Source: a virus. From it: a stretch of DNA of 64,000 bases. This document shows, piece by piece, positions 495 to 33,930 of the stretch (positions are counted from its first letter, which is position 1; every line of letters begins with the position of its first letter). The position numbers and the translations under genes are program-made. The notes under the pieces are model-generated. The model did no database searches. It was given only the letters and a program-made list of their open reading frames with translations, and was not told the origin of the DNA. The stretch lies in IMG/VR virus record IMGVR_UViG_3300028024_000008, positions 89-64,088 of that record; one strand, written 5' to 3'.

Positions 495-830
495 TCAATC
501 GGCGACGTTGCGGATGGCCTGGGGCGAGTACTCCCGCTGGATCGTCACGTCGTAATGACCGGCGGGCAGCTGGATGGTCGCATGCTCTTCATGTTGCAGG
601 GCGGCGCCGGCCGGGTCGGCAATGCTGAGATAGGTCGCGCCGCCGTTGCCGCTATCACGGAACAGCTTGACCTTGGGATTGTGGATCGCATGGCTGTGGC
701 CGGTGACTTCACCATAGGCAAGGACAACGGCGCCCTTGTCCCGCGGCACTTCGGTGGCGACCGCGACCGGTTCGGCGCGCTCACGAATCAGCACGTCACC
801 CTGGCGGTAGAGCTTCAATTTCTTGGTCAT
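495..830 (-). CDS. Conserved phage protein (YRQGDVL...LAYGEVTGHSH), usual neighbour of DUF6745 genes
   Basis: Motifs in the ORF 495..866 translation; start chosen at MTKKLKL. Confidence 0.75.
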   Translation of the reverse strand: MTKKLKLYRQGDVLIRERAEPVAVATEVPRDKGAVVLAYGEVTGHSHAIHNPKVKLFRDSGNGGATYLSIADPAGAALQHEEHATIQLPAGHYDVTIQREYSPQAIRNVAD

Positions 831-862
831 GGTCATCTCCTCAAAAGATGGGTTGGGTGATC

Positions 863-2101: not shown

Positions 2102-2145
2102 GCTGGCTTTCCCCGGATGATGGATGGTGAAATATCGAACTGGCG

Positions 2146-2493
2146 TTAGGTGGTGGCGTCGGTCCTACGGAAGCCGCTGCAGCTGCCGTCACCTTCGATC
2201 ACGGCGACAATCGGGCCCCACCCTTTGTGAGGGCCTTCGCTGAAGATGCCGCAGAAGCCATTAATGACGCCGAGAAAACCGACGACGGGCTGGTTATCAG
2301 CGAAGTTCGCTTCATAGGCCCCGGGAGCGCTCTTGAGATCGCCCCAGATACCAGCCTGCACAGTCGGATGACCGAGGACGTCAAGGTTGCATGGCACCCT
2401 GGCTGCGACCAGCTTGCCCATGCCGACTGGATCGAGCTTGGCCAAGGTGTCCAGGAAGGTGACGAGGTCGTCCGTTGCGGGATGAATTGCCAT
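2146..2493 (-). CDS. Hypothetical phage protein
   Basis: 115-aa ORF tightly packed in the operon. Confidence 0.65.
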   Translation of the reverse strand: MAIHPATDDLVTFLDTLAKLDPVGMGKLVAARVPCNLDVLGHPTVQAGIWGDLKSAPGAYEANFADNQPVVGFLGVINGFCGIFSEGPHKGWGPIVAVIEGDGSCSGFRRTDATT

Positions 2494-2504
2494 CGTGAGA
2501 CTCC

Positions 2505-3713
2505 TTAGCGGACGACCGTATTGACGTCCTCGAAGATGATGACGCCGGCCAGTTCGCGGCCATCGGCGTCGACGTAAGAGCGGATCGCGCGCTCCAGCGC
2601 CGCCTGGTCGAAATGCTGCGCCAGCTTCAGGATGTCACCGCGCAATGCGGCCATATCGGTGATCTGGAAATCCCAGTCGGTGCGGAGAGATGCCGTGGCG
2701 CCGTGATCGCCGCGGACCTGGCCGAATTCATGGGGCTTCGCCTCGATGACGCGGGTTTCCTTGACGATCGCCGCCGTCTCGCGCTCAGAAGCCTGCACGA
2801 CGCGGGCGTCGGCCTTTTCGACCTTCTTGGCGCCGGCTTCTTCGGCCAATTTGATCCGGGCGGCATTCCGTTCTTCCTGCTCCAGGCGCTGGCGCTCCAG
2901 CCGGGTCTGTTCCTCGGCCGCCGCCAGCCGCTCGCGCTCAGCCTTCAGCCGATCGGCCTCGGCAGCTTTGCGCTGGCGCTCGGCAGCTTCCTCGGCTTCC
3001 TTGGCCGCCTTGACCGCGGCATCGCGCTTGCGGCCCGCCTCGGCGGCCTCCTCGATCGCTTTGCGGCGGTCTTCCTCGGCCCTGGCCCGGGCCTGCTCAG
3101 CCTCCTGCCGCTGGCGCTCGGCCGCTGCCGCCCGCTCCTTGGCCTCACGTTCCAATGCCTCGGCCTGGCGCTGGCGCTCCTCGGTCTCGCGGCGCTGCGC
3201 ATCGGCCTTTTCACGGGCTTCACGGGCGATGCGCTCGGCTTCCTCGCGCGCCGCCGCCGCTTTGGCTTCCTCTTCCTTGCGCAGCCGCTCGGCCTCTTCG
3301 CGCTTTTTACGGGCCTCTTCCTCGGCGAGTTTGCGCTTGCGGTCGGCCTCCTTCTCCTGAAAGACCTGCAGGCGGCTCTCGACCGTCTCCTTGTCCTTTT
3401 TCAAAAGATTGATCGGCTTCATGAAAAGGTTCTGCACGGCGGCGGCGGCGTTATCATGCGGCGCCTTCTCCGCGGCGCGGGTGGTGTTGAGATCCTTGAC
3501 GCCGTAACCGATCTGCTTGGCGAAATCGGCCGCCTTGCGGGCCGTCTCCTCGTCATCGATCGTCTCCGGCACCGCGCCCATGCCGGCATGCAGATCATTC
3601 GCCCGCTTGAACAGGAAATCGTGCTTTTCCTGCAGGTTGTCGACGATCTGCTGTTCAGCGGAAACGACGGCAATATTGGTGAGATCCGGGATCTCGGCGA
3701 CGGCAACGCTCAT
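2505..3713 (-). CDS. Coiled-coil protein next to the recombinase
   Basis: Long E/A/R/K-rich helical middle with globular ends; stop/start overlap with the upstream gene. Confidence 0.8.
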   Translation of the reverse strand: MSVAVAEIPDLTNIAVVSAEQQIVDNLQEKHDFLFKRANDLHAGMGAVPETIDDEETARKAADFAKQIGYGVKDLNTTRAAEKAPHDNAAAAVQNLFMKPINLLKKDKETVESRLQVFQEKEADRKRKLAEEEARKKREEAERLRKEEEAKAAAAREEAERIAREAREKADAQRRETEERQRQAEALEREAKERAAAAERQRQEAEQARARAEEDRRKAIEEAAEAGRKRDAAVKAAKEAEEAAERQRKAAEADRLKAERERLAAAEEQTRLERQRLEQEERNAARIKLAEEAGAKKVEKADARVVQASERETAAIVKETRVIEAKPHEFGQVRGDHGATASLRTDWDFQITDMAALRGDILKLAQHFDQAALERAIRSYVDADGRELAGVIIFEDVNTVVR

Positions 3714-4075
3714 TTACGTGAACCTCCAAAGATAGGCGGCATCTGCCGCAGGTCGACGGGTTTGCGGGGATTGGCTTCCGGCTCGTCGGGGGCATGCTTG
3801 GCAGCCCATTGCCGCAACGCGCAGCGCCAATTGTATTCGGCCTCCGGGGTCGGCTCGCCGGCACACCAGGGCCAGACCTTCTCGATCGGCACCTCTTCAT
3901 CGCCGAGCAGGGCATGAAAGGACGGCGACCGATCCAGCAGCTCGCCGGTGTCAGGGTCGCGCGACGGCCGGAACTCGATCTTCACCGGGACCCACGGGCC
4001 GCGCTTTATAAGGCGCATCTTGTAGAGCCCTGGCGTCGGCGTGCTGATATCGTGGGAATCGCGGAGATCAAGCAT
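3710..4075 (-). CDS. Hypothetical phage protein (PGLYKMRLIKRGPWVPVKI)
   Basis: Part of ORF 3710..4186; ATG 4075 overlaps the upstream stop. Confidence 0.65.
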   Translation of the reverse strand: MLDLRDSHDISTPTPGLYKMRLIKRGPWVPVKIEFRPSRDPDTGELLDRSPSFHALLGDEEVPIEKVWPWCAGEPTPEAEYNWRCALRQWAAKHAPDEPEANPRKPVDLRQMPPIFGGSRK

Positions 4076-4253
4076 TCCGTTTGCGCTTCCCAGAACGTTC
4101 GGCGGCGCGGCGGCTGGCCTCGGTCTCGGCGATGACCTGTTCGACACCTTCGCGGTAGATGCGGAAGTTGCCAAGATGTTGGTCACACCAGGCCATTTGC
4201 TTCGGGCCGAGACCGCGCGGCTTGCCGGCCGGCTTCAGGGCGACGGCTACCAT
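4068..4253 (-). CDS. Small hypothetical protein
   Basis: 3' part of ORF 4068..4385; tiles between neighbours. Confidence 0.45.
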   Translation of the reverse strand: MVAVALKPAGKPRGLGPKQMAWCDQHLGNFRIYREGVEQVIAETEASRRAAERSGKRKRNA

Positions 4254-4369
4254 GCCAGCACCCATGACCAGGCGATATAGACGCCGAGACCGGCGGCCAG
4301 GATGACGAATTGCGCAAGGCCGCCCCAGGTCAGGGCATGGGCTACTGCGTTGCGTGTATCGCGTTTCAA
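4247..4369 (-). CDS. 40-aa single-TM peptide (TTG start)
   Basis: Manual translation LKRDTRNAVAHALTWGGLAQFVILAAGLGVYIAWSWVLAW; TTGA overlap with the upstream stop; GGAG RBS. Confidence 0.5.
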   Translation of the reverse strand: MKRDTRNAVAHALTWGGLAQFVILAAGLGVYIAWSWVLAW

Positions 4370-4590
4370 GCTGCGTCTCCATCATTAGGGGCTGGACTGA
4401 AACGAATCGTCTCGCCTCGAAGGGCGAGGGCGTGCCGGCTGTTCTGCCGCAGGCGAAAGCTCGGGCCGATATCGACCAGGCGCCAGAGCTTCTCCTTGTG
4501 CTGGCGATGCGCGGTAAGCTCGACGATCGGCTGTGCCAGCTCGGAGCTGGCCTGCCAATAGGCGCGCGTCTTTTCCTCGAGATAGCTCAT
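4366..4590 (-). CDS. Hypothetical protein
   Basis: ATGA coupling on the upstream side. Confidence 0.55.
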   Translation of the reverse strand: MSYLEEKTRAYWQASSELAQPIVELTAHRQHKEKLWRLVDIGPSFRLRQNSRHALALRGETIRFSPAPNDGDAA

Positions 4591-4925
4591 GCGATCACCG
4601 TCGATGCGTCCCACTCGGCGCGGATGGCTTCGGCGACCATCTTCTCGGCGAGGCGCAGATCACCTCGCTCCATAGCCTCGAAATGCGCGGTGCCGTCGAG
4701 GCGATTGAAACGAGCGCGTTCGATCACGTCAGATGGACAATTCTGGCCAATGAGCACAAACCAATGATGGCCACCGAATTGGTCCTCCGCGCGCTTGATC
4801 GTGACAAGTGGCTCTACAATTGGCCTCACATGCATGATCGATGAGGCCCGCACGATCGACGGCGCAACGATCAGCCCAGCGGCCATGCGCAGCAACTGAC
4901 GGCGAGGAAGGACGAGACCGGTCAT
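4587..4925 (-). CDS. Hypothetical protein with RR-containing hydrophobic N-terminus (PRRQLLRMAAGLIVAPSIVRASSIM)
   Basis: ATGA coupling; N-terminus typical of alphaproteobacterial phage ORFs. Confidence 0.6.
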   Translation of the reverse strand: MTGLVLPRRQLLRMAAGLIVAPSIVRASSIMHVRPIVEPLVTIKRAEDQFGGHHWFVLIGQNCPSDVIERARFNRLDGTAHFEAMERGDLRLAEKMVAEAIRAEWDASTVIA

Positions 4926-21555: not shown

Positions 21556-22881
21556 ATGAGCTTCCTGAAACGACTGTTCAGCCGTGAAGCTGCAACGGGC
21601 GAGGGTGTCTCTGCGCCTGCGGCGAAGGCAGCGGCCGAGGGCGGTACATGGTCAGGTGGCACATTCTCGCTGCCGTCATTGGCCGGCTCGGTGCGGTCGC
21701 TGACCGGCGTCACCATGAACCAGGTGACGGCGCTGCAGGTCTCGACCGTCTTCGCCTGTGTTTCGATCCGGGCCGAGGATGTCGCGCGCTGCACAGCCAG
21801 GCTGTACCGACAGCTTCCGGATGGTGACAGGGCAGAGATCAGCCCGAAGCAGCATCCGATCGCCCTGTTGTTGAAGCGTCCGAACGATTTTCAGACCTGG
21901 TTCCAGTTTGTCGAACAGATGGAACTCAATTGTCTGCTGCATCAGAACGCCTATGCGGTGAAGCTCTATGACCGCCGCGGCAACATCGAAGAGGTGATCC
22001 CGATCAACCCGGCGCAGGTCATCATGATGGCCGGCCCGGATGGTCGCCTGATGTATAACGTCGCCCGGCTGGGCCTCTGGGAACAGGCGAAGCTGTCCGA
22101 TTACGGCGCGGTGATCGCCGCCGAGGACATCATCCATCTTCGCGGCCTGACCCTGAATACGTTGCTCGGCTATTCGCGGATCCAGCTGGCGCGGGAAGCG
22201 ATCGGCCTCGCCATGGCTCAGGAGCAGCAGGCGGCACGCTGGATCGGCAACGGCGCCCGGCCGTCCGGCATCCTGAAGACCGACAAGAGCTTGACGGATG
22301 AGGGCGCCAAGCGGCTCAAGAGCCTGTGGCAATCGCTGGTCGGCGGCCTCATCAATACCGGCTCGACGCCGGTGCTGGAGAACGGCCTCAGCTGGGAAAA
22401 GCTCGGCATGGATTCCGTCGACATGGAATTCGCCCAGTCCCGCAAGGATCAGATCCTGGAGATCTGCCGCTTCTTCCGGATGCCGCCGCACAAGGTCGGC
22501 ATGATGGATGGCGTCGCCAAGGCATCGCTTGCCCAGCAGGACCAGGATTACGTCAACAACACGATCATGCCGGATCTCGAGCGCTGGGAGACCAGCCTGG
22601 AGCGCACCTTTGATCTCGACCTTTCCGACTACGAGATCGATTTCGACGAGACGCAGCTCGCCCGGGCCGATGTGCAAACCCGCTACACCAACTATCGCAC
22701 CGGCATCATGAGCGGCTTCCTCAAGCAGAACGAGGCCCGCAAGGCCGAAAATCTCAAGCAGGACCCAGACGGCGACAAGTTGCTCGTTCCGTCGAGCATG
22801 GTGCCGCAGGGCAGCGACATCAATGGATCGGCCGATGATGGCGCCGGCCGGCCGCCCGCAGGTCAATCCGAGAAGGTGTGA
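21556..22881 (+). CDS. HK97-family portal protein
   Basis: GYSRIQLAREAIGL, NGARPSGIL, EICRFFRMPPHKVG. Confidence 0.95.
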   Translation: MSFLKRLFSREAATGEGVSAPAAKAAAEGGTWSGGTFSLPSLAGSVRSLTGVTMNQVTALQVSTVFACVSIRAEDVARCTARLYRQLPDGDRAEISPKQHPIALLLKRPNDFQTWFQFVEQMELNCLLHQNAYAVKLYDRRGNIEEVIPINPAQVIMMAGPDGRLMYNVARLGLWEQAKLSDYGAVIAAEDIIHLRGLTLNTLLGYSRIQLAREAIGLAMAQEQQAARWIGNGARPSGILKTDKSLTDEGAKRLKSLWQSLVGGLINTGSTPVLENGLSWEKLGMDSVDMEFAQSRKDQILEICRFFRMPPHKVGMMDGVAKASLAQQDQDYVNNTIMPDLERWETSLERTFDLDLSDYEIDFDETQLARADVQTRYTNYRTGIMSGFLKQNEARKAENLKQDPDGDKLLVPSSMVPQGSDINGSADDGAGRPPAGQSEKV

Positions 22882-22882
22882 C

Positions 22883-24166
22883 ATGAACAAGAAATTTGCC
22901 AATGCCGCCGTCGTGAAAAGCGACGGTCTCGGCGATCGCCAGATTCGTGTCCGTGCCTCGGATGCGACGGTCGATATGGTCGGCGATATCCTGATCCCGA
23001 AAGGCTGCTCGCTGCGCGGCAACACGCAGACGGTCAAGGTCTTCGCCGATCATGAATCGAAGATCGCCAATACGCTCGGCAGCGCCGAGGTCACGATCAC
23101 CGACAAGTCGGTCGATGCCGTCATCACCTTCCTGGAAAAGGGCATCAGCGATCTCGCCGATCTCGCCTGCAATCTCTACAAATCAGGCGTCCTGACCGAC
23201 GTCTCGGTTGGCTTCGATCCGGAGGAGGCGGAACCGCGCAAGGGCGGCGGCATCGTCTTCACCAAATGGAAACTCCTCGAGATCTCCTGTGTCGGCATCG
23301 GCTGCAACGACAACGCCGTGACGACCGCCAAATCGGCGGAATTCGATGGCGCGCGGTTCTGGCTGGAATCGGACGAGCATATGTCAATTGAGCAGACCGC
23401 CAGGGCCGGAGAAGTGCTCAAGGCGTGGCTTGCCGATCCGGCAACGCCGCTGGTGCTCGGGAAAGGTTTCCACCTGAAATCCACCATCGTCCAGAAGGCC
23501 GATGAAACCGATTGGCGTGTCGGCGCAGCGAGCGATCTCCCGCTTGGCGATGACGGCACCTGGGATGGACCGGCCGCCGCCAAGAAGATGCTGGATGATG
23601 CCGAAGGCGAAGACGGCAAGATCGATGCCACCAAGGCCAAACGCGGCTTCCTGGTCTATGACCTGAAGAACGCCGCAGAACGCGGCGGCTACAAGCTGCC
23701 TTTCGCCGAGCTCATCGACGGCGAGCTGAAGGCCATGCCAGGCGGTCTCCGCGCCGCGGCGTCCCGTCTTTCCGGTACCGACATCCCCGACGCAGCCAAG
23801 GAAAAGGCCCGGAGCGTCATCGACAGCTATGAGGCGAAGATGAAAAACGACAAGGCGATTGCCCGCATCAAAACGAAGCTCCTCGAGCGCCTCAAGACCA
23901 AGGGTCTCTATGACGTGGCCTATCTGGCGGAATGCCTGCAGACGCTGGGCTGGCTCCAGATGGGCGCCGAGGATGAGGCCGATTGGGAAGGCGATGATTC
24001 GCTCGTCCCCGGCATGCTCGCAAATGCGCTGCAGGCTTGTGCCGACGCCCTGGTTGCGATGGCGAAGGAAGAATCCGACGAGCTGCTGGCCGTCGCGCTC
24101 GGCAAAGCCCGGACGCAGGTTCGCACCAAGAACGCCATCACCAAACGGGCGAAACAGGTCGCCTGA
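22883..24166 (+). CDS. Prohead protease with extended C-terminal domains
   Basis: DMVGDILIPKG, FADHES, DVSVGF and LLEISCVGIGCN (S78-like); start at MNKKF. Confidence 0.85.
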   Translation: MNKKFANAAVVKSDGLGDRQIRVRASDATVDMVGDILIPKGCSLRGNTQTVKVFADHESKIANTLGSAEVTITDKSVDAVITFLEKGISDLADLACNLYKSGVLTDVSVGFDPEEAEPRKGGGIVFTKWKLLEISCVGIGCNDNAVTTAKSAEFDGARFWLESDEHMSIEQTARAGEVLKAWLADPATPLVLGKGFHLKSTIVQKADETDWRVGAASDLPLGDDGTWDGPAAAKKMLDDAEGEDGKIDATKAKRGFLVYDLKNAAERGGYKLPFAELIDGELKAMPGGLRAAASRLSGTDIPDAAKEKARSVIDSYEAKMKNDKAIARIKTKLLERLKTKGLYDVAYLAECLQTLGWLQMGAEDEADWEGDDSLVPGMLANALQACADALVAMAKEESDELLAVALGKARTQVRTKNAITKRAKQVA

Positions 24167-24258
24167 CTAATTCCGGCAGCCGCCGGGATTGCCCCTTCCG
24201 CCCTTGGGCAAGGCAGCGGCGACGCGATGTCGCCGCGTCCCCACTGAAGGAGCCTCTC

Positions 24259-25548
24259 ATGGCTAAAAACCGCGCAGAGCTGGTCGCCAAGCGCCTCCAG
24301 CTCTCCGATCGCATGAACGCGATCGCCGAGATGCCGGCGGCTGAAATGACGCCGGAAGTTACCAAGGAGTTCGACGATGCCGAGACCGAGATCAAGGGTC
24401 TCGATAAGGAAATCGACAAGCTGGATCGGGCATTCCAGGCCTCGGCCGCCAAGGCGATGCCGGTCGGCGGCGGCGCACAGCCGGCGGCGACTGTCCCGGC
24501 CCGCGCCAAGGAGAAGGATTATCCGGTCGGCCGCTATGTGAAATCCCTCTACGCCGGCGGCGGCAGCGTGCATCAGGCCGCGGACCATGCCAAGCGCACC
24601 TATGGTGATGACGACGTCGTCACCAAGGCGCTGAGCACCGCGGTTGCCGCCGATGGCGGTGCGCTCGTGCCGGAAGACTTCGCCGACCAGGTGATCGAGC
24701 TGCTGCGTCCGGCGACGGTGGTTCGTTCCAGCGGTGCCCTCACGGTGCCGATGCCGCGCGGTACCATGCGCATGCCGCGTCAGACCTCCGGTGTGACCGG
24801 CAGCTATGGTTCGGAAGGCGGTTCGCTGTCGGCCGAGCAGGCTCAGTTCGGCGATATCGTCGCGACGTTCAAGAAATTGCGCGTCCTGACGCCGATCTCG
24901 AATGATCTCCTGCGTTATGCCTCGCCGCAGACCGATCGCATCGTCCAGCAGGATATCGTCCTCGGCCTGGCCCGCACGGAAGACTTCGCCTTCCTGCGCG
25001 GTGACGGCACCCAGGATTATCCGGTCGGCCTGAAGACGATCGCCACCCGGGCCGGCAATACCGTCCCGAGCAACGGCACGCCGACCCTCGACACGGTCTC
25101 CGCGGAACTGAATAACGCGGTGCTGAAGCTGTCGCAGGCCAATATCCCGATGCTGGAGCCGGCCTGGTTCTTCCATCCCCGGACCGAGCTCTTCCTCAAG
25201 AACCTGAAGAACGCCAACGGGTTCTACGTCTACAAGGACGAGATGAGCGAAAACAAGACGCTGCTCGGCTATGCCTTCAAGAACACGACGGCGATCCCGG
25301 CCAATCTCGGCGTCGGCGGCGATGAATCGGAGATTTATTTCTCCGATATGGCGCAGATCATGATCTTCGACTCCCTCGCTCTCAGCCTCGCGATGTCGAC
25401 CGATGCCACCTATACGGCGGCGGATGGTTCCCAGCGCAACGCCTTCGAGCGCGACGAGACGCTGATGCGCGGTATCGCCGAGCATGACTTCCATGCCCGG
25501 CATGACACCGCTGTCGCCCTCATCACCGCCGTCAAGTGGAAGTTCTAA
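24259..25548 (+). CDS. HK97-fold major capsid protein
   Basis: Coiled-coil delta domain, DGGALVPEDF, EDFAFLRGDG, RDETLMRGIAEHDF; GAAGGAG RBS. Confidence 0.95.
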   Translation: MAKNRAELVAKRLQLSDRMNAIAEMPAAEMTPEVTKEFDDAETEIKGLDKEIDKLDRAFQASAAKAMPVGGGAQPAATVPARAKEKDYPVGRYVKSLYAGGGSVHQAADHAKRTYGDDDVVTKALSTAVAADGGALVPEDFADQVIELLRPATVVRSSGALTVPMPRGTMRMPRQTSGVTGSYGSEGGSLSAEQAQFGDIVATFKKLRVLTPISNDLLRYASPQTDRIVQQDIVLGLARTEDFAFLRGDGTQDYPVGLKTIATRAGNTVPSNGTPTLDTVSAELNNAVLKLSQANIPMLEPAWFFHPRTELFLKNLKNANGFYVYKDEMSENKTLLGYAFKNTTAIPANLGVGGDESEIYFSDMAQIMIFDSLALSLAMSTDATYTAADGSQRNAFERDETLMRGIAEHDFHARHDTAVALITAVKWKF

Positions 25549-25605: not shown

Positions 25606-26076
25606 ATGCAGCGGATTCTCGCTACCGATCCGGCGAGCGTGCTCAAGGCTGTCATTGCCAGCACGATCCAGGACGTCACCGCCGGCGCGACGCCGGATAA
25701 CCACAATGTCACCGGCCTCGCCATTGACCGCGAGACCATGCATTTGCCGCCGGCGGCAGTGCTGGCGGTTTATTTCGAGGCCGTGCTGGGCGCCGCCAAG
25801 ACGCTCGCCATCAAAAACGTCTCGATCCAGCACAGCGACGACGGCGCCACCAACTGGGCGACCTATCTGACCCTGACCGATCCCGGCGTTGTCGCCACCG
25901 GCCAGAGCGGCGGCTCGACCGAGCGCGGGCAGGTGCAGAACAGCGTCAACCTGTCCGGCGCCAAGCGTTGGGTCCGGACCATGTTCACGCCGGATCTCTC
26001 CGCGACCAATACCGACACCTGTGAGGTCATGAGTTCGCTCATCTTCACCGGCTTCGACACCATCCCGCACGCCTGA
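25606..26076 (+). CDS. Probable capsid decoration/accessory protein
   Basis: Strong GAGGAG RBS; beta-rich; directly after the capsid gene. Confidence 0.6.
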   Translation: MQRILATDPASVLKAVIASTIQDVTAGATPDNHNVTGLAIDRETMHLPPAAVLAVYFEAVLGAAKTLAIKNVSIQHSDDGATNWATYLTLTDPGVVATGQSGGSTERGQVQNSVNLSGAKRWVRTMFTPDLSATNTDTCEVMSSLIFTGFDTIPHA

Positions 26077-26308: not shown

Positions 26309-26980
26309 ATGCGGGTCGTCAGCACGGTCCTGATAAAGGCAGGCAGTGCCGCGCTGACGACCTGGTCGGACGTCCAGCTTGAGCTCGGCCTGAAAGATGC
26401 CGATCGCGCCTGGACCGAGAAGGCAATCACCCGGGTGAGCGCGATCATCGCGCAATACTGCAACCGGGTGTTCGGCCTACAGGTCATCCAGGACGAGTTC
26501 ATCCCGGAAAACCAGCCTTTCGGCTGGCAATATCCGGACACGAAAGAGGATCTGAGGCTGAGTGCATGGCCGGTGCAGGGGGCGGCCTCGGTTGCCCTAC
26601 CGGACCGCACTTTATTGGATGGCGTCGACTATCGCCTTGACCCGAAGAGCGGCGAGCTGTTCCGGATCGATGAAGTCGGCCAGATCATCCCCTGGATCCC
26701 GCTCACGGTGACGGCGGTTTATGAGGCCGGCTACATCCTGCCGAATGACAGCGGTTATGTTGCCGGCGATGCCTCGGCGCTGCCGGCCGACATCCAGGAT
26801 GCCGCGATTTCGCTGGTGAGGGCCCGGTATTTCGCCCGTAAGCGCGATCCATTGCTGAAATCCGAGGACGTGCCGGATGTCGGCGCCGCGCAATATTGGA
26901 TCGGTTCCGTCGGCGACAAGCAGATGCCGAGCGACATCGCCTCAACCCTCGATAACTACCGTCCCGGCGTCATCGCATGA
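26309..26980 (+). CDS. Head-tail connector (adaptor)
   Basis: LTTWSDVQLEL, IAQYCNRVF and LPADIQDAAISLV. Confidence 0.8.
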   Translation: MRVVSTVLIKAGSAALTTWSDVQLELGLKDADRAWTEKAITRVSAIIAQYCNRVFGLQVIQDEFIPENQPFGWQYPDTKEDLRLSAWPVQGAASVALPDRTLLDGVDYRLDPKSGELFRIDEVGQIIPWIPLTVTAVYEAGYILPNDSGYVAGDASALPADIQDAAISLVRARYFARKRDPLLKSEDVPDVGAAQYWIGSVGDKQMPSDIASTLDNYRPGVIA

Positions 26981-27348
26981 GCCCGACCGAGGCGATCAGT
27001 ATGCTTGACCGGCAGCTGGCGAATAATGGCAAATCGGTTGCCATGAAGAAGCGCATCGGCGGCGGCCTGAGTGGCTTCGAACAGTATTTCTGCAAGGCGA
27101 TGCACCGCACCTGGACCAAGGGCCGCGGCAGCGATGAGCTCGCCGACGGCATCCAACAGCAGTTCACGCTCCTTGTTTTCTCGCCGACAGATATTCCGGC
27201 AGGGTTCGGGTCGCTTTCCGGCGGCCAGCCCTGGCCCGACGTCGGCGACATCGTCAGCGCCGATGGTCGCGACCGTGAGATAAAGGCCAGCAATCCGATC
27301 TTCATGGATGACGTGCTGGTCAGGATCAATTGTCAGCTGGTTGGCTGA
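26977..27348 (+). CDS. Head closure protein
   Basis: Position and size; WPDVGDIVSADG. Confidence 0.6.
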   Translation: MSPTEAISMLDRQLANNGKSVAMKKRIGGGLSGFEQYFCKAMHRTWTKGRGSDELADGIQQQFTLLVFSPTDIPAGFGSLSGGQPWPDVGDIVSADGRDREIKASNPIFMDDVLVRINCQLVG

Positions 27349-27351
27349 CGA

Positions 27352-28008
27352 ATGATCCATTCGACCGCGAAATGGTCGGGCTCCATGGCCCGGCCGGAGA
27401 CGGCCTGGCGCGCGGATCCGGTCTGGGCCGGCGAGATGGTCGTCTGTGTCGCCTCTGGGGCCAGCCTGATGCAGGCGGATATCGATCTCTGCCGCGGCCG
27501 CCGGGTGATCGCCGTCAATGATTGCTGGCGCCTGGCGCCCTGGGCGGACTGCCTATTCGCCGCCGATGCCTCCTGGTGGCAGGCCAAGGGCCCGAGGCCC
27601 GATGAATTCGCTGGCATGCGGGTGACAACGGACCGGACCAACCCGCCCGGCTGCAAAGTGATGCTCTGGAACCGGATGACGGGACTGGCCGCCGATCGGC
27701 GCTATCTCTGCACCGGTGCCAATTCCGGATACTCGGCCGTCAATCTGGCGGTTCATCTGAACAACGGTACCGCGCCGATCGTGCTGCTCGGTTACGACAT
27801 GACCGGGGAACACTTCTTCGGCCGGCATCCGGAACCGCTCCGCAACCCTGAGGAATCGCATTTCCGGCAATGGCGCGAGAACTTCGCGACGCTGGCGGAA
27901 GCCGCGGCCAAGCGGGACCGGCCAATTGAGATCATCAATGCAAGCCGGGAAACGGCGCTGACCTGTTTTCCGTGCATGCCGCTCGAGGAGGCGCTGCAAC
28001 TTCAATGA
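27352..28008 (+). CDS. Maf/MptE (DUF115)-like transferase, copy 1
   Basis: VASGASL, VIAVND, NSGYSAVNLA, IVLLGYDM and IINASRETAL motifs. Confidence 0.65.
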   Translation: MIHSTAKWSGSMARPETAWRADPVWAGEMVVCVASGASLMQADIDLCRGRRVIAVNDCWRLAPWADCLFAADASWWQAKGPRPDEFAGMRVTTDRTNPPGCKVMLWNRMTGLAADRRYLCTGANSGYSAVNLAVHLNNGTAPIVLLGYDMTGEHFFGRHPEPLRNPEESHFRQWRENFATLAEAAAKRDRPIEIINASRETALTCFPCMPLEEALQLQ

Positions 28009-28403
28009 TCAAGATCACAAGCGAAGGCGGGAACGGTTCTGGCACCAAGATCACGGATACAGAAACCGGCTATGAGATTAATCGCTGGGCCGCCGGTCTC
28101 GACGTTTCAATCAAGAGCGCAGATAGCCCAGTTACGGCGCTCGTTCAGCTGGCAATGGTTGAGCTCGACATAGAGGCCGAGCGGGTCCGTTATGCGCTCT
28201 ATGATCCTGACACCCACCAATTGCGCGAGATCGCTCAAATTGTCTTCGCAGACGGCAAGACGCTGGATTTCAGCGGCAATGGCGCGCCGAGGCCGTTGCA
28301 GGACATGAATTTCGACCATGCGGTGAAGACGCTGCATCACTCGATCCAGTTCCGCACTCAGGCTGCGATCGATGCTTGCTTCGATCGGGATGCCGGGGTC
28401 TGA
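28005..28403 (+). CDS. Hypothetical protein
   Basis: ATGA and TGATG coupling at both ends. Confidence 0.6.
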   Translation: MIKITSEGGNGSGTKITDTETGYEINRWAAGLDVSIKSADSPVTALVQLAMVELDIEAERVRYALYDPDTHQLREIAQIVFADGKTLDFSGNGAPRPLQDMNFDHAVKTLHHSIQFRTQAAIDACFDRDAGV

Positions 28404-29587
28404 TGCCCTATCCTGATGTGATCGGCGAATATGAGACGATCGAGGCATGCAAGACGCGCTCGATCGCAAGGTTCGGTGACGGCGAGTTCAATCTGGCGGT
28501 TGGGCGCAAATGTGTCAGCCAGGAGGCCGATGATCGGCTCGCTGCCGAGCTGCGGGCGATCCTGGCCGGCCCGACCGCCTGCATGGTCGGGATCCCGAAC
28601 ATCGCACAGAGCCCGCGCGCCATCTCCTGGCAGAAATACGCCGATGGCCCGGCCGGGCAGCTGCTCGGCAAGGGCCCGTTCTATTCGAGTTTCATCACCC
28701 GGCCGGACAACGCGCCGCATATCGACACCCCGGCCTACTGGGATGCGATGTGGTCGCTCTGGCGCGGCAAGGATATCACTCTCGTGCTCGGCGATCGCCG
28801 CTCGCTGCGCCCGGAGATGCTCGCGGATGCCGCGCGCCTGACGGTGATCGAGGATCTGCGGCCAGTCACCGAGGGCGGCTGGACCAAGCATGCCTATCGG
28901 CATGTCGGCGAGATCGAGGAGCGCATCGGCACGCCGGCCGGTACCGTCATCATGTGCCTCGGCGCGACGGCAACGGTTCTCGCCGAACGCCTGGCGCGCA
29001 AAGGTGTCCATGCCCTGGATCTCGGCCATGCCGGCATGTTCGCCCGCCATGCCGGCATCTATCGCTACAGCCAGGACGATCTCTGCTCGCCGGCCTACCG
29101 GCAAATGCTCGCTCTGGTCCGAAAGAATGTGAAGGGCTGGGGCGGCGATGGCGCCAAACATGCCGATGAGGTGCGACGCCTGGTCGCTGAGTTCGAGGCG
29201 GTGACCATCCTGGATTATGGATGCGGCGCCGGGAAACTGGCTGACGCAATGTCGCCCCAACGCGTGATGCAGTATGACGCCGGCATCGAGGGCAGGGCCG
29301 GCATGCCGAAGCCGGTCGACCTGGCGGTCTGCACGGATGTATTGGAGCATGTCGAGCTGGAAAAGCTGGATGCAGTTCTCGATCATCTCTTCCGGCTCGC
29401 AGGCAAGGCGCTCTATGTCGTGATTTCGACCCGGCCGGCGAAAGCGGTTCTGCCCGACGGCCGCAACGCCCATTTGATCGTGCAGCCCGGGCCCTGGTGG
29501 GTCGCCAAGTTCCAGGAGCAGGGCTGGAAGGGTCCTTACCGCATCGAAGATGACGGCAAGGAAGTCAGGCTCTGGTTCAAGAAATGA
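28403..29587 (+). CDS. GT-D fold (DUF1792-like) glycosyltransferase fused to a class I SAM methyltransferase
   Basis: N-term SIARFGDGEF...CLGATATVLA...ALDLGH; C-term ILDYGCGAG...CTDVLEHV. Confidence 0.8.
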   Translation: MPYPDVIGEYETIEACKTRSIARFGDGEFNLAVGRKCVSQEADDRLAAELRAILAGPTACMVGIPNIAQSPRAISWQKYADGPAGQLLGKGPFYSSFITRPDNAPHIDTPAYWDAMWSLWRGKDITLVLGDRRSLRPEMLADAARLTVIEDLRPVTEGGWTKHAYRHVGEIEERIGTPAGTVIMCLGATATVLAERLARKGVHALDLGHAGMFARHAGIYRYSQDDLCSPAYRQMLALVRKNVKGWGGDGAKHADEVRRLVAEFEAVTILDYGCGAGKLADAMSPQRVMQYDAGIEGRAGMPKPVDLAVCTDVLEHVELEKLDAVLDHLFRLAGKALYVVISTRPAKAVLPDGRNAHLIVQPGPWWVAKFQEQGWKGPYRIEDDGKEVRLWFKK

Positions 29588-30207
29588 TCAGCCGCGCCGA
29601 CTGGTCGCCAAAGGTCAGCGATGAAGCCTTCGCTTTCCTGGCGATCCAGCGCGGCCGACTGAACGATATCGTCGGCAACCGGCCGGCATGGCTCGAAGCC
29701 TATAAGGCGTCGCTGTTCGACTGGTATGAGAATGCGCTGCCGTACCTGCCGGAGACCTGCGGGTCGATCTGCGATATCGGCGGCGGGATGGGCGGTATCG
29801 ATGCGCTGCTGAGTCGGCATTACGGTGGCGTCGATGTCTTCATCCTCGACGGCGTCGCCGATCAGCCGGTTTTCGCGCAGACCAACCGACCGTTCAATGA
29901 CATGCGGGTAACGGCTCGATTTCTGGCGGCGAACGGCGTCGAGACCTTCGGTTATTTCCCGCCGGGTGCCCGCTCGACGGAAACCAGGTTCGATCTGATC
30001 CTGAGCACGCAGGCCTGGGGCTTCCATCTCCCACCGGCGGCCTATGCCGAATTCGCCCTCGATGGCTGGCGGACCGGTACCCGCATGATCATCGATCTGC
30101 GGCGCGGCCGCAGCGACTGGCGCCAAGGGCTGGAAGCGGATTTCGGTCGGGCCGAGATCATTTATCAGGACTGCAAGTTCGAAAGGCTGGTCTTCGGGCA
30201 TGCCTGA
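29584..30207 (+). CDS. Class I SAM-dependent methyltransferase
   Basis: ICDIGGGMGGID and FDLILSTQAWGFH. Confidence 0.75.
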   Translation: MISRADWSPKVSDEAFAFLAIQRGRLNDIVGNRPAWLEAYKASLFDWYENALPYLPETCGSICDIGGGMGGIDALLSRHYGGVDVFILDGVADQPVFAQTNRPFNDMRVTARFLAANGVETFGYFPPGARSTETRFDLILSTQAWGFHLPPAAYAEFALDGWRTGTRMIIDLRRGRSDWRQGLEADFGRAEIIYQDCKFERLVFGHA

Positions 30208-30796
30208 CGTGATCACGGTCCTGGCGGGCGGCTGGTCGGCTGGTCTGCTGGACCTCGCACGGCTGCCGGGCTTCGTGATCGGGGTCAATGACAGCGCCAT
30301 CCATGCGCGCTGCGACCATGTCGTCTCGATGGACCGGCTCTGGACCGAGCATCGGGCGGCGCATCTCGCCTTCTGCAATGTGCCGGCGCATATCCGCGGC
30401 GCGGCACTAAAGAACGTGAAGCCGTGGCCGGCGCTGCAGCGGTTCGATTGCGATCATAGGTCAGCCGTGTTCTCGGACGACCCCGGCATCCTGAACGGGA
30501 CGAATTCCGGGCTCTGTGCCTTCAATCTCGCCTACCAGATGCGGCCGAAGCAGATCTTCCTGGTCGGCTTCGATATGCAGCGCGGGCCGAATGGGGAAGG
30601 GCACTGGTTCCAGGATTACAGCTGGGCGCCAGGCGGGGCGACCAAACAGGGCAAATACAATGCCTGGGCAATGGAATTCCATTGCGCCGGCGGCAAATGC
30701 TCTGCGGCCGGAATCGAGGTTTTGAATATTGGTGAGCGGTCACTGATCGACGCTTTCCCGAAGATCAACAGCAAGGATTTCGGTCGTTACCAATGA
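30200..30796 (+). CDS. Maf/MptE (DUF115)-like transferase, copy 2
   Basis: VLAGGWS, VIGVNDS, NSGLCAFNLA and IFLVGFDM. Confidence 0.65.
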   Translation: MPDVITVLAGGWSAGLLDLARLPGFVIGVNDSAIHARCDHVVSMDRLWTEHRAAHLAFCNVPAHIRGAALKNVKPWPALQRFDCDHRSAVFSDDPGILNGTNSGLCAFNLAYQMRPKQIFLVGFDMQRGPNGEGHWFQDYSWAPGGATKQGKYNAWAMEFHCAGGKCSAAGIEVLNIGERSLIDAFPKINSKDFGRYQ

Positions 30797-31488
30797 GAGA
30801 TGTGACGTTCTGCCTCGCCTATTACCTGAATCGAGGCATGTTGCGGGAGCAATACCGCCAGCTCCGCGCGCTGCCCGCCGACCTGAAAGAACATCTTCGT
30901 CTCATCGTCGTCGATGACGGCTCGCCGGATCCGGCCTGGGCCGATGATCTCGGCTTCCCGATGCGTCTCTACCGGATGCAGAAGGACATCGCCTGGAACC
31001 AGGACGCCTGCCGCAACCTGGCGGTCAAGGAGGCCGAAACCGACTGGGTGCTGATGACGGATATGGATCATGTCGTTCCGGAGCAGACCTGGCGCCGCGT
31101 CGTCACCGGCAGCCTCGATCCGAACACCGCCTATCGCTTCGCCCGCGTCTCGATGCCGAAGCGCGACGCTTATAAGCCGCATCCCAACAGCTGGCTGATG
31201 ACGACAGCGGTCTTCGAGAAGGCCGGCGGCTATGACGAACGCTTCGCCGGCTATTACGGCACCGATGGTGACTTCGTCGGCCGGCTGAGCGCCCAGGCGC
31301 CGATCGAGCAGCTGAAGGAGCACATCATCCGCTACCCGCGCGAGGTCATTCCGGATGCCTCGACGACGACCCTGGCGCGGAAGTCGGAAGAGAACGGCGA
31401 GGCGATCAAGCGGATCAAGGCCGAGCGCAAGCTGGAAACCGATGGCCGCCCGAAGCGCTATCAGACGCCCTGGGAGCGCCTTGCCTGA
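30793..31488 (+). CDS. GT-A fold glycosyltransferase (GT2/GT7-like)
   Basis: IVVDDGS, ACRNLA, MTDMDH and GGYDERFAGYYGTDGDF. Confidence 0.85.
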   Translation: MRDVTFCLAYYLNRGMLREQYRQLRALPADLKEHLRLIVVDDGSPDPAWADDLGFPMRLYRMQKDIAWNQDACRNLAVKEAETDWVLMTDMDHVVPEQTWRRVVTGSLDPNTAYRFARVSMPKRDAYKPHPNSWLMTTAVFEKAGGYDERFAGYYGTDGDFVGRLSAQAPIEQLKEHIIRYPREVIPDASTTTLARKSEENGEAIKRIKAERKLETDGRPKRYQTPWERLA

Positions 31489-31490
31489 TC

Positions 31491-32198
31491 ATGCTGTCGA
31501 TCGTCTGCTTTAAATGGAAACCGAAGGGCGCCTATCGGTCGACCTTCGGGCCTCAGACCGTCAACATCCTGAAGCGCATGGTTGGCCGGCATTATGCCAA
31601 GCCGCACCGCGTGATCTGCGTCACCGATGACGCGCGCGATATCGATCCGGATGTCGAGATCGTGCCGCTCTGGGACGATTATGCCAACGTGCCGTCACCG
31701 CATGGTGCCGGCAATCCGAGCTGCTACCGCCGCCTGAAGGCCTACAGCAAGGAGGCGGCCGACTGGTTCGGCCCGCGCTTCGTGATCCTCGACCTGGACT
31801 GCGTCATCGTGCGCGACATGGTGCCGGTCTGGGACACGCCGACGGATTTCTGCATCTGGGGCGATACCAACCCGACGAGCCCGTATAACGGCTCGATGCA
31901 GCTGATGAATGCTGGCGCCAGGGCGCAGGTCTGGGAGACCTTCGATCCGATCGAAAGCCCGAAGCGGTCAAAGGCGATGGGGTATTTCGGGTCGGATCAG
32001 GGCTGGATCGCCGCCTGCCTCGGCCCGAACGAGAATAAATGGTCGACCGTCAACGGGGTCTATAGCTACCGCAATCACATAGCACGCGCCGGCGGCAAGT
32101 TGCCGGCGAACGCGCGGATCGCCTTTTTTCACGGTCAAACGGATCCATGGCATCCCCAGGCGCAAGCACTGGACTGGGTGAGGGAGCATTACCGCTGA
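31491..32198 (+). CDS. GT-A fold glycosyltransferase (GT8-like)
   Basis: VCFKW, VICVTDD, ILDLDCVI, GSDQGWI and FFHGQTDPW. Confidence 0.75.
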   Translation: MLSIVCFKWKPKGAYRSTFGPQTVNILKRMVGRHYAKPHRVICVTDDARDIDPDVEIVPLWDDYANVPSPHGAGNPSCYRRLKAYSKEAADWFGPRFVILDLDCVIVRDMVPVWDTPTDFCIWGDTNPTSPYNGSMQLMNAGARAQVWETFDPIESPKRSKAMGYFGSDQGWIAACLGPNENKWSTVNGVYSYRNHIARAGGKLPANARIAFFHGQTDPWHPQAQALDWVREHYR

Positions 32199-32905
32199 TG
32201 GCCGAAGATTTCAGCCGCATCGTCGATCTTGGCGCCGAGCTGCAGCGCGATCTCGCACAGTTGTTGCCGCAGGAAGTCAAGGAACTGCATATCACCTATG
32301 CCAAAGAGGTGAAGGCCTCGGAAATGTCGGCCAGCGGCTTCCGGCCGGCCGAAGTGCAGACCATCGTCGACGGCCGGACGCCGGCGGCAGAGGAACAGGT
32401 GCAGCCCTTCGGCATCATTGCTTACCGGTTCGGCTCGATCGTCGATGTGGCCTTCGAGGTCCGTGATCTGCTGATCGAGAAGTCGCCGAAGGGCGAAACC
32501 GGGCTCTATGCCTCAAGCTGGTTTGCCATCGTCAACGGCGAGCCGGTGGCCTGGGAGGCGCTCGAGCAGACCTGGAAGCCGGGCCAGGAGATCTGGATCA
32601 GCAACGACCAGCCGTATTCGCGCATCCTGGAGATGGGCGCTGATCCCAATGGGCCGCTGCGCGTCTTCAAGGTGCCGGCGCACACGACGCAGAAGATCCT
32701 GCCGGAGGCCCGCAGCCGATTCGGCAATCTGGTGCGCATCAATGACACCTTCATCGACCTGCATGGTCCCGGAACCGGAAAGGCCAAGCCAAGCCCGACG
32801 CATGGTAGCTCGGTCCCCTGGATCCTGCAGAATTCGCAGGGCCGCAAGGGCCGGCTGGCTGGCGACCCGATCAACTATCCTGCCGTGGTCATCACACCGC
32901 TATGA
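32198..32905 (+). CDS. Tail completion (neck) protein
   Basis: Position before the tail terminator; IWISNDQPYSRILEMG. Confidence 0.65.
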   Translation: MAEDFSRIVDLGAELQRDLAQLLPQEVKELHITYAKEVKASEMSASGFRPAEVQTIVDGRTPAAEEQVQPFGIIAYRFGSIVDVAFEVRDLLIEKSPKGETGLYASSWFAIVNGEPVAWEALEQTWKPGQEIWISNDQPYSRILEMGADPNGPLRVFKVPAHTTQKILPEARSRFGNLVRINDTFIDLHGPGTGKAKPSPTHGSSVPWILQNSQGRKGRLAGDPINYPAVVITPL

Positions 32906-33333
32906 ACATCATCGAAGCCCGCCAGGCCGTGAAGCAATACGTCACCGATCACTGGACGACGACGCCGGTCGTCTGGCCCAACCCGGCCCGGCCCGGAAAG
33001 GGACCGCCGAAGAAGATATCGGACATCGATCCACACTGGATCGCCCTCGAACTTCTCGACCTCAGGGCGGATACCGGCCTCGGTGAAGCCGGCAGCCGTT
33101 TCGCGCAGGATGACGGCCTCTTCATCATCAATGCCTTCGCGCCGGTGATGACCGAAGAAGACGCGATCTGGAACATCACCTTTCAGTTCAGCGAGATGTT
33201 CCGCGCGCTGAAACTCGATGGCTTGCAATTCATGTCGCCGCGCATTCAGCCATCGGCCACGAAGGCCAGCGATGACGGCGCTTGGTACGCCCTGACGGCG
33301 ACGGTGCCATTCATGCTCTTAGGTACCGTCTGA
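32902..33333 (+). CDS. Tail terminator protein
   Basis: TPVVWPN, DDGLFIINAFAP and WYALTATVPF. Confidence 0.7.
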   Translation: MNIIEARQAVKQYVTDHWTTTPVVWPNPARPGKGPPKKISDIDPHWIALELLDLRADTGLGEAGSRFAQDDGLFIINAFAPVMTEEDAIWNITFQFSEMFRALKLDGLQFMSPRIQPSATKASDDGAWYALTATVPFMLLGTV

Positions 33334-33413
33334 TAGACGGGCAGCCCTCATAGCCCTTGGGCAAGGCAGTGATCGAGGCGCCTCCGGGCGCCTTTTTCTT
33401 TATGGAGCCCCCT

Positions 33414-33878
33414 ATGACGACCACAACTCCGTTACCAGCCTCTGGTTCCAAGCTCTATATCGGCGGCATCGGCGCCCTCGATTCCGAAACCGGTTGGACC
33501 TTGATCGGCAACGTCATCACCATGGGTGAATACGGCGCCAAGGACGACACGATCGACTATGTCGATCTCGGCTCCGGCATCCATATCAAATTGAAGGGGC
33601 CGACCAATGCCGGCGCCATGGCCGCGACGCTTGCTAAGATCCCGAGCGACGCCGGGCAGGCGGCTCTTAAGGCCGCCTATGAGGACAAGGTCAATGACTA
33701 TAATTTCAAGGTTGAATGGCCGGACCGTCCGTCGCATAGCGGTGGCACGCCCTCGACTGAAAAGTTCAAGGGCAAGGTCATGGGCTACACGACCAATATC
33801 CAGAACGCGAACAGCGTCATCCAGGCCGGCGTCGCGATCGAGCTGAACAGCGTGCCGGAATTCATCCCGGCAGCCTGA
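33414..33878 (+). CDS. Major tail tube protein
   Basis: ASGSKLYIG, WTLIGNVITMGEYG and DAGQAALKAA. Confidence 0.85.
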   Translation: MTTTTPLPASGSKLYIGGIGALDSETGWTLIGNVITMGEYGAKDDTIDYVDLGSGIHIKLKGPTNAGAMAATLAKIPSDAGQAALKAAYEDKVNDYNFKVEWPDRPSHSGGTPSTEKFKGKVMGYTTNIQNANSVIQAGVAIELNSVPEFIPAA

Positions 33879-33899
33879 CACATAATCCCTTCTGACCCG

Positions 33900-33930
33900 A
33901 CCGCCGCAATCCCTGCGGCGGTTTTCTTTT
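33900..33930 (+). terminator. Intrinsic terminator after the tail tube gene
   Basis: ACCGCCGCA-atccc-TGCGGCGGT followed by TTTCTTTT. Confidence 0.7.

Follow-up and report, generated by a model that had tools for sequence, protein, structure and literature searches.

We analyzed a 64,000-nucleotide stretch of viral DNA (positions 89 to 64,088 of IMG/VR record IMGVR_UViG_3300028024_000008; hereafter, the window) in which seven translationally coupled open reading frames (ORFs g1 to g7, all on the + strand) lie within positions 27352 to 32198, embedded among the neck genes of a tailed phage. Six of them encode predicted enzymes with intact catalytic-type motifs: two Maf-like transferases, a fusion of a GT-D glycosyltransferase (GT) with a methyltransferase, a probable second methyltransferase, a GT2-family GT and a GT with the GT8 fold. 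On balance, we favor the view that this cassette O-glycosylates virion proteins late in infection and in the cytoplasm, adding a methylated glycan. This reading is suggested by the retention of the head-tail position in hundreds of phages, across hosts with differing envelopes, by the action of relatives of the Maf, GT-D and GT8 enzymes in cytoplasmic protein O-glycosylation, and by the lack of DNA-hypermodification genes in the record. The enzyme classes, the soluble nature of the enzymes and their embedding in a late neck operon are supported, and we infer that the product is a glycan capped by methyl groups on proteins of the capsid or tail.

The initial annotation had placed a six-enzyme glycosylation and methylation cassette at this position, and its limits proved to be exact: the first Maf-like gene opens with the ATG at 27352, and the stop codon of the GT8-like gene ends at 32198. 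The six enzymes stood; however, a seventh ORF, g2 (28005 to 28403), had been overlooked. When the junctions were read from the DNA, ATGA overlaps were found between the adaptor and the probable head-closure gene upstream of the cassette and at g1/g2, g3/g4 and g5/g6, TGATG overlaps at g2/g3 and between g7 and the downstream neck gene (at 32198), and an 8-nucleotide (nt) overlap at g4/g5, while gaps of 2-3 nt separate the head-closure gene from g1 and g6 from g7. From the adaptor gene to the tail terminator gene (26977 to 32902), each junction is thus an overlap or a 2-3-nt gap, as expected from the earlier claim of overlap coupling between head-closure and tail-completion genes; these flanking genes were assigned from PHROG matches and, as a lead, from an Atlas structure search. 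The start of the downstream neck gene had been set at 32147 and should be corrected to 32198. A consensus scan found no promoter-like or terminator-like sites on the + strand within 27352 to 32198, and the + strand hairpins closest to the cassette lie on either side of the tail-tube gene.

No transmembrane-like segment was found in any of the enzymes (the maximum Kyte-Doolittle mean over 19 residues was below 1.6 in each), which agrees with their earlier description as soluble. The cassette contains no flippase, polymerase, acyltransferase or membrane protein, and the 64-kb record contains no genes for NeuB, a CMP-sugar synthetase or a thymidylate-synthase-like enzyme, nor any match to PF00303 (the thymidylate-synthase fold of pyrimidine hydroxylases and hydroxymethylases). 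The absence of transmembrane segments, the operon coupling and the absence of donor synthesis suggest that the enzymes are soluble, made alongside the virion proteins and reliant on nucleotide sugars of the host.

Enzymes encoded in the cassette

The products of g1 (27352 to 28008; 218 amino acids, aa) and g5 (30200 to 30796; 198 aa) matched the same family, phrog_4603, which is annotated as 'alpha-2,3-sialyltransferase' (E = 2e-45 and E = 7e-18, respectively), and g5 also matched phrog_2111 (E = 1.4e-5). The two proteins are 22% identical in our alignment, and the family of g1 comprises more than 1600 proteins. Sequence and profile searches of the PDB with g1 returned nothing significant, and a fold search was needed. 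The AlphaFold2 model of g1 (predicted local distance difference test, pLDDT, 93.6) had the Maf glycosyltransferase 5mu5 as its top PDB match (Foldseek probability 1.00; VIA Z = 15.3 over 196 residues, root-mean-square deviation 3.6, identity 11%), followed by MptE HPPK (VIA Z = 11.1) and the sialyltransferases Cst-I/ST3Gal (Z = 9.1). The model aligned to residues 233-513 only of 5mu5_A, the central domain of the 632-residue Maf; the helical domains at the N- and C-termini of the full-length protein are missing from both g1 and g5. The sialyltransferase-like, nucleotide-sugar-binding central domain that characterizes Maf and PF01973 was thus found in the predicted structure of g1. Against PF01973 itself (MptE-like, formerly DUF115/MAF_flag10; gathering score 34.6 bits), g1 gave no match and g5 scored 15.3 bits (E = 0.017), under the gathering score; among 40 sampled homologues of g1, 33 matched PF01973 at E ≤ 0.01 (best 1.3e-6). 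These sequence comparisons indicate that g1 and g5 are distant relatives of PF01973 and not curated members. The two Maf/DUF115-like transferases of the initial annotation are consistent with the shared phrog_4603 match and with the fold match of g1 to Maf.

The third ORF, g3 (28403 to 29587; 394 aa), joins a GT-D (DUF1792) domain to a class I S-adenosylmethionine (SAM) methyltransferase domain. Both domains exceeded their Pfam cut-off of 27 bits, with 57.8 bits for GT-D (PF08759; E = 1.8e-15, residues 30-219 of the long ORF) and 36.2 bits for Methyltransf_23 in the C-terminal domain (E = 6.2e-9), and motif I (LDYGCGAG) was seen in the methyltransferase sequence. The solved DUF1792 enzymes (PDB 4pfx, 4phr and 5v4a) were matched at E values from 1.7e-12 to 7e-12, and RFGDGE of g3, which contains the DXE metal-binding motif, aligned identically to 4pfx and 4phr; the fusion reported earlier was convincing in both of its parts. 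The score of g3 against the equivalog TIGR03728 (SP_1767-type accessory GT) was 65.5 bits and did not reach the cut-off of 290.75, which points to membership of the same superfamily but not to orthology. A search for related loci with g3 alone returned only the close relative.

The following ORF, g4 (29584 to 30207; 207 aa), probably encodes a divergent SAM methyltransferase. Its match to Methyltransf_23 (18.9 bits, E = 1.4e-3) was under the cut-off of 27, and its homologues gave scattered weak matches to methyltransferases (best 4.9e-5). Across 14 homologues there is no variation at D64, G68, G71 and D89/G90, which include the glycines of motif I and the acidic residue that follows strand 2; motif I reads DIGxGxGG and is succeeded by LLDG. 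The second methyltransferase that had been claimed is therefore favored by the invariant glycines of motif I but not by the Pfam score, and we retain it as a weak assignment.

The product of g6 (30793 to 31488; 231 aa) is a GT2-family (GT-A) enzyme that scored above the cut-off for both PF10111 (39.9 bits, cut-off 27.3, E = 4.6e-10) and PF00535 (32.9 bits, cut-off 23.3, E = 7.4e-8), and its sequence shows DD and DMD motifs (VVDDG and TDMDH). Its best PDB sequence match, the flagellin O-GlcNAc transferase GmaR (E = 0.04), was not significant. The last and most conserved gene of the cassette, g7 (31491 to 32198; 235 aa), matched phrog_1962 (E = 6.6e-16); it had no Pfam match (PF01501 included), and its profile reached only E = 0.11 in the PDB, to Gat1 (6mw5) over the DxD region. 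The AlphaFold2 model of g7 (pLDDT 94.5) aligned to six GT8 structures with residues 1-235 covered (VIA Z = 17.7, 16.8, 16.0, 15.8, 15.7 and 15.3), among them LgtC (17.7), Gat1 (16.8), glycogenin (16.0) and GlyE (15.3), suggesting an LgtC/glycogenin-like GT8 fold; the capsid-glycan GT A64R of PBCV-1 (2p6w) followed with Z = 11.5. Among 35 homologues, D101-x-D103, H214, G215, D218 and P219 never vary, and W220 hardly does. The description of g6 as GT2/7-like and of g7 as GT8-like in the initial annotation thus agrees with the Pfam scores of the former and with the fold and the invariant DxD and His of the latter.

Distribution and conservation of the cassette

At E ≤ 1e-5, g7 has 1683 database homologues, many of which are 60-69% identical, and at least 335 IMG/VR contigs encode a relative of it. 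We fetched 79 loci, excluding the near-identical relative, and counted the composition in the 38 that extend at least 6 kb upstream. A Maf-like gene was present in all 38, a GT2 gene in 34, a GT-D domain in 25, a methyltransferase of the g3 type in 24 and one of the g4 type in 11; the two domains of g3 were fused in 13 of the 38 loci and encoded by separate genes in some others. The recurring order was Maf, GT-D (with or without the methyltransferase), methyltransferase, Maf, GT2 and GT8. The GT8 gene normally closes the cassette; small neck genes come immediately after it, then those for the tail tube, chaperones and tape measure. The cassette always came after the portal and major capsid genes and before the neck, tail-tube and tape-measure genes in the fetched loci, and all 421 BLAST matches to cassette and head genes share the strand of g7. 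The cassette was found on at least three unrelated head-gene backbones, and its place among the neck genes varies: it precedes the gp6-like adaptor gene in most loci, is split around the adaptor gene in L005 and in Pseudomonas phage D3, and follows the head-closure gene in the window. The synteny survey that had been proposed in the initial annotation therefore showed that the head-tail position is kept.

The median identity to the proteins of the window was 58% for g7, 46% for g6, 44% for g3 and 38% for g1 (36-58% for the enzymes overall), compared with 23-30% for the terminase, portal, protease and capsid proteins. Beyond the near-identical phage, no relatives of the adaptor, head-closure, neck, terminator or chaperone proteins were detected in the loci, and the tail tube and the tape measure were each detected in one locus. 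The better conservation of the enzymes than of the structural proteins suggests that the module is exchanged between phage lineages or is under much stronger constraint than the particle.

Variants of the cassette add FkbM, Methyltransf_24 and Methyltransf_12 enzymes and a radical SAM/SPASM protein. The gene for the last of these lies among the GT and methyltransferase genes of L035 (5794 to 7326, + strand; Pfam E = 5e-14 and 3e-6) and hints at extra chemistry, for example C-methylation or modification of sugars or peptides. In the same locus and in L020, L012 and L057, an ORF of 630-680 aa resembling a protease-capsid fusion precedes the portal gene (approximately 800 to 4800), an unusual order of head genes.

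The full cassette was also found in genome contigs of Bradyrhizobium sp. JYMT SZCCT0428 and of one Steroidobacteraceae metagenome-assembled genome (MAG). GT2-GT8 gene pairs adjoin portal genes in a contig of Sphingopyxis flava and in Cellvibrionaceae MAG contigs; a contig of Sphingomonas sp. Root720 carries such a pair and one of Sphingobium jiangsuense a GT8 gene, with no portal gene detected in either. We read these copies in Bradyrhizobium, Steroidobacteraceae, sphingomonads and Cellvibrionaceae as prophages. Since a contig assigned by binning to the alphaproteobacterial family Dongiaceae carries the nearest homologue of g7 (92%), and the full cassette occurs in the Bradyrhizobium contig, a proteobacterial host is plausible for the phage of the window.

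Nearly the whole cassette, with GT-D and methyltransferase, is present in the cultured 'Tetraselmis viridis virus S20/SI1' (TVGG_00041-00049), between the capsid region and the head-closure gene, and the identities of the S20 proteins to those of the window are 55% (g7), 44% (g6) and 40% (g3). Note that the recorded host of S20 (NC_020840.1) is a green alga. S20 belongs to Caudoviricetes, has terminase, portal, tape-measure and tail genes and carries a bacterial-phage cassette, and for these reasons a bacterium present in the algal culture is presumably its true host.

Reduced versions occur in other cultured phages. The island of the Pseudomonas phages D3 and PAJU2 comprises orf7 and orf12-orf13. 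In D3, the Maf-like orf7 is placed between the capsid and adaptor genes, and orf12 (unknown) and orf13 (methyltransferase) lie between the head-closure and gp10-like genes; instead of the set in the window, D3 carries a single Maf-like gene, a gene of unknown function and a methyltransferase gene. In phiCbK-like Caulobacter phages, a Maf-like gene, a methyltransferase gene and four unknown genes are placed behind the tail genes. In P1 (NC_005856.1, 79592-82150), pmgO matched phrog_4603, pmgP matched phrog_2111 and more weakly phrog_4603, and pmgQ matched phrog_1962, with a BLASTP E value of 2e-11 between PmgQ and g7. The pmgO-pmgP-(ppp)-pmgQ island of P1 and P7 (hdmB-D) is interrupted by the Ser/Thr phosphatase gene ppp and forms an operon with a late promoter; unlike the cassette of the window, it holds only two Maf-like genes and one GT8-like gene and lies outside the neck genes. 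The islands of P1, D3, S20 and the phiCbK-like phages share protein families and a late or structural context with the cassette of the window, and we found no reported function for any of them.

In P1, pmgO, pmgP and pmgQ were classified as non-essential by CRISPR interference (CRISPRi) knock-down, in a table that refers to the P1 deletion survey for the same classification (PMC10695390). In that survey, 24 of 29 knock-outs had no plaquing or antirestriction defect, and among the pmg proteins discussed, PmgC and PmgG were reported as detected in the virion proteome (PMC9024508). These results fit a role of the P1 homologues as accessory enzymes rather than structural proteins.

Two candidates for a structural partner that travels with the cassette were rejected. 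The 156-aa protein encoded after the capsid gene, considered as a small virion acceptor, was found only in the near-identical relative. Co-inheritance of one tail-tube family with the cassette could not be established, because the tail-tube proteins of the fetched loci were chained by weak BLAST similarity, with no control set, and because Maf-like genes also occur in P1 and in jumbo phages such as XacN1 and Eowyn, which we take to be contractile-tailed.

Possible targets of the enzymes

In the mechanism that we propose, the cassette would decorate one or more virion proteins (the major capsid protein, the tail tube or a neck or decoration protein) with a short O-methylated oligosaccharide. 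The donors would be nucleotide sugars of the host, since the phage encodes no donor synthesis. One GT would initiate on Ser or Thr of an assembled or assembling structural protein, the remaining GTs would lengthen the chain, the Maf-like enzymes would attach a CMP-activated ulosonic sugar, and the methyltransferases would O-methylate the glycan. CMP-Kdo (Kdo, 3-deoxy-D-manno-oct-2-ulosonic acid) is our guess for the donor of the Maf-like enzymes because we expect the hosts of P1, D3 and the phage of the window to share it; in those of P1 and D3 it is, to our knowledge, the only universal CMP-activated sugar. The occurrence of the GT-D and methyltransferase domains in fused or split form (a relationship of the Rosetta-stone type) suggests that methylation is coupled to glycan synthesis. 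The benefit would be accessory, such as shielding, stability or surface interactions of the particle, and the cassette is probably dispensable for assembly, because its P1 homologues are not needed for plaque formation. The nearest characterized relatives of the Maf-like, GT-D and GT8 enzymes are Maf (flagellin), the GT-D enzyme dGT1 (4pfx) and the GT8 enzyme GlyE (both from the serine-rich adhesin systems), glycogenin and Gat1, and all of these act on proteins in the cytoplasm.

Several points weigh against glycosylation of the virion. Our analysis identified no acceptor: neither the major capsid protein, the 156-aa protein nor the tail tube has a conspicuous tail or repeat rich in Ser and Thr, the only hint being TTTTP at the N-terminus of the tail tube. 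No single small virion protein or tail-tube type accompanies the cassette in all backbones, and the small ORFs that precede the first Maf gene, which we considered as a universal partner, fall into backbone-specific groups only. The GT2 and GT8 families include enzymes of lipopolysaccharide (LPS) and polysaccharide synthesis, with LgtC at the top of the fold matches of g7; kinases such as MptE share the PF01973 fold; the domains that flank the central one in full-length Maf are missing from g1 and g5; and the assignment of g4 as a methyltransferase is weak. The whole case is built on sequence, fold and synteny.

It is unlikely, in our estimation, that the enzymes have a late target other than the virion (a host protein, for example flagellin or pilin, or a small molecule that is soluble or linked to lipid), or that the methyltransferases act directly on virion proteins while the GTs act elsewhere. 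Maf relatives do modify flagellin, and the MptE/TPK-like fold relatives of g1 are kinases; however, the N- and C-terminal domains of Maf, which have been proposed to bind flagellin, are missing from g1 and g5, and a host protein as target would hardly account for so strict a tie to the morphogenesis module in phages that infect many different hosts. Direct methylation has a parallel in a mycobacteriophage tail protein, the methylation of which by a host enzyme matters for infectivity (PMC13445384), whereas the fusion and fission of GT-D and methyltransferase link methylation here to the synthesis of a glycan.

The enzymes might instead alter an envelope glycan of the host at the cytoplasmic face (LPS core or O-antigen, or intermediates of capsule or exopolysaccharide), masking receptors against trapping on debris or excluding other phages, although we hold this to be quite improbable. 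Temperate phages can change the serotype of their host (PMC12619734), the best fold match of g7 is the lipooligosaccharide galactosyltransferase LgtC, the GT8 and GT2 families are rich in LPS and polysaccharide enzymes, and the enzymes of the cassette are soluble like the GTs of the LPS core. However, with no promoter or terminator of its own and with its coupling into the late operon, the cassette would be expressed minutes before lysis and not in the lysogen. In addition, it lacks the flippase, polymerase, acyltransferase and membrane protein noted above, unrelated backbones, and hosts of differing envelopes, retain its placement between head and tail genes, and the relatives of its GT-D and Maf-like enzymes are protein glycosyltransferases.

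Glycosylation or methylation of the phage DNA (base hypermodification) as a defense against restriction is very improbable: GTs that glycosylate phage DNA are well known (PMC13326640; PMC12619734), but the known clusters combine a thymidylate-synthase-like hydroxylase or hydroxymethylase, which is absent from the record (PF00303), with a dCTPase, a nucleotide kinase and GT-B-like GTs between the DNA polymerase gene and rIIA (PMC13326640), whereas the cassette sits in a structural operon and has GT-A, GT-D and Maf-like folds, and most deletions of P1 pmg and upf genes left antirestriction unaffected (PMC9024508).

Returning to glycosylation of the virion, a wider and more doubtful proposal is that Gram-negative tailed phages, including P1 and D3, coat their particles with an O-linked glycan that is capped by an ulosonic acid (Kdo or a sialic-acid-like nonulosonate, added by the Maf-like enzymes) and by methyl groups. 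In this proposal, the cassette would move between lineages as a unit, diversify in a serotype-like manner and tune the surface chemistry of the particle, either for escape from binding in the host or the environment or for adhesion to surfaces.

Flanking genes and comparison with known systems

The window covers nearly all of a 64.3-kb IMG/VR viral contig of the linear class, with an estimated completeness of 75%, and its GC content is about 61%. PHROG profile matches revealed a siphophage late operon of the classical type on the + strand at 19.8-38.1 kb, in the order large terminase, portal, protease/scaffold, HK97-type major capsid, 156-aa protein, gp6-like adaptor, 123-aa head-tail-joining-like protein, the cassette, neck/tail-completion-like protein, tail terminator, major tail protein, chaperone and tape measure. 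Directly upstream of the cassette are the gene for the gp6-like head-tail adaptor (26309 to 26980; phrog_442, E = 8e-23) and that for the 123-aa protein (26977 to 27348). The latter had neither a Pfam nor a PHROG match, and its probable role in head closure or head-tail joining is a lead from the Atlas structure search only (TM 0.61-0.79 to clusters with Phage_attach, Phage_H_T_join_3 and Minor_capsid_1). Downstream are the neck/tail-completion-like gene (32198 to 32905; phrog_16336, E = 1e-30, and a weak match to phrog_169, 'tail completion or Neck1', E = 7e-4) and the tail terminator gene (32902 to 33333; phrog_179, E = 2e-8).

Two further products of this operon are candidate acceptors, namely the major capsid protein (24256 to 25548; phrog_10, E = 6.6e-54) and the major tail protein of the tail tube (33357 to 33878; phrog_158, E = 9.4e-21). 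Between the capsid and adaptor genes lies the 156-aa gene (25606 to 26076), the product of which carries no function assignment. The capsid ORF extends up to a TTG at 24037, with a 130-nt overlap with the 3' end of the gene for the 447-aa protease/scaffold-like protein (22823 to 25548 region, + strand), and the likely start of the capsid gene is the ATG at 24256 (MAKNRAEL...) inside this longer ORF. The 447-aa protein matched PHROGs of two kinds, 'major head protein' and 'head maturation protease'. Terminator-like GC-rich hairpins with T-runs were seen on both sides of the major tail gene on the + strand (33375 to 33394 and 33899 to 33923), and the second looks like the usual attenuator behind a high-copy tail-tube gene.

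The overlooked ORF g2 (132 aa) had no match in Pfam, PHROGs or NCBIfam, nor in the tblastn search of phages; its score in the Atlas search was only 0.76, and its Atlas model was poor (predicted TM-score, pTM, 0.30). It is a clean insertion/deletion of about 400 bp relative to the closest phage, the 88%-identical L003, from which it is absent, and it was present in none of the 38 related cassettes. The GC content at its third codon positions is 0.68, compared with 0.77-0.83 in the neighboring genes. The ORF is outside the conserved cassette and may be a recently acquired passenger gene.

In the literature searched, we found neither this cassette nor glycosylated virions described for phages of Gram-negative bacteria. 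In the same literature, virion glycosylation was demonstrated only in mycobacteriophages, where it alters antibody recognition. If the virion is indeed the target, glycosylation of the particle would be common among phages of Proteobacteria, given the hundreds of environmental contigs and the contigs from Bradyrhizobium and sphingomonads, and would employ an unrelated set of enzymes, drawn from protein glycosylation of the flagellin and adhesin types and joined by extensive methylation. It would also provide a function for the 'putative morphogenetic' genes pmgO, pmgP and pmgQ of P1 and for orf7, orf12 and orf13 of D3, and these homologues open the question to direct tests in phages commonly used in the laboratory. 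Its outcome matters for how stable phages are, how they adsorb, how immunogenic they are in therapy and how extra densities in cryo-electron microscopy maps are interpreted.

The mycobacteriophage systems, described for Che8 gp110, Corndog gp38 and Myrna (Freeman et al. 2023, as cited in PMC12363180 and PMC12619734), resemble the proposed one in that GTs of the phage use donors of the host to decorate its own particle, are dispensable and place glycans, in those phages, on capsid and tail-tube subunits. They differ in their actinobacterial hosts, as opposed to Proteobacteria here, where glycosylation is only predicted, and the window has a set of Maf-like, GT-D, GT8 and GT2 enzymes with at least two methyltransferases that is wired into the neck genes. 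A tblastn search of 50,697 phage records with g6 and g7 returned no mycobacteriophage at E ≤ 1e-3, indicating that the resemblance is functional only and that the systems are analogous and not homologous at the sensitivity of this search.

The cytoplasmic protein O-glycosyltransferase Maf of Magnetospirillum magneticum (5mu5) shares the sialyltransferase-like nucleotide-sugar fold with g1; g1 and g5, however, have 198-218 aa and the central domain only, with 11% identity. Glycosylation of the streptococcal serine-rich-repeat adhesins is similar in that a protein glycan is built stepwise in the cytoplasm, in that the GT-D enzyme dGT1/GalT1 (4pfx) shares RFGDGE with g3, and in that GlyE (5gvv) shares the GT8 fold. 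In contrast, the cassette is accompanied by no serine-rich-repeat substrate and no accessory Sec system, and its GT-D domain is fused to a methyltransferase. Such a fusion has a parallel in A064R of PBCV-1, which combines GT domains with a methyltransferase domain and builds a methylated glycan on the major capsid protein, where the glycans are N-linked. Although PBCV-1 is a giant virus of eukaryotes and A064R is related to g7 by fold only (Z = 11.5), the physical fusion of GT and methyltransferase makes it the nearest analogue for a fusion enzyme of this kind in the synthesis of a capsid glycan.

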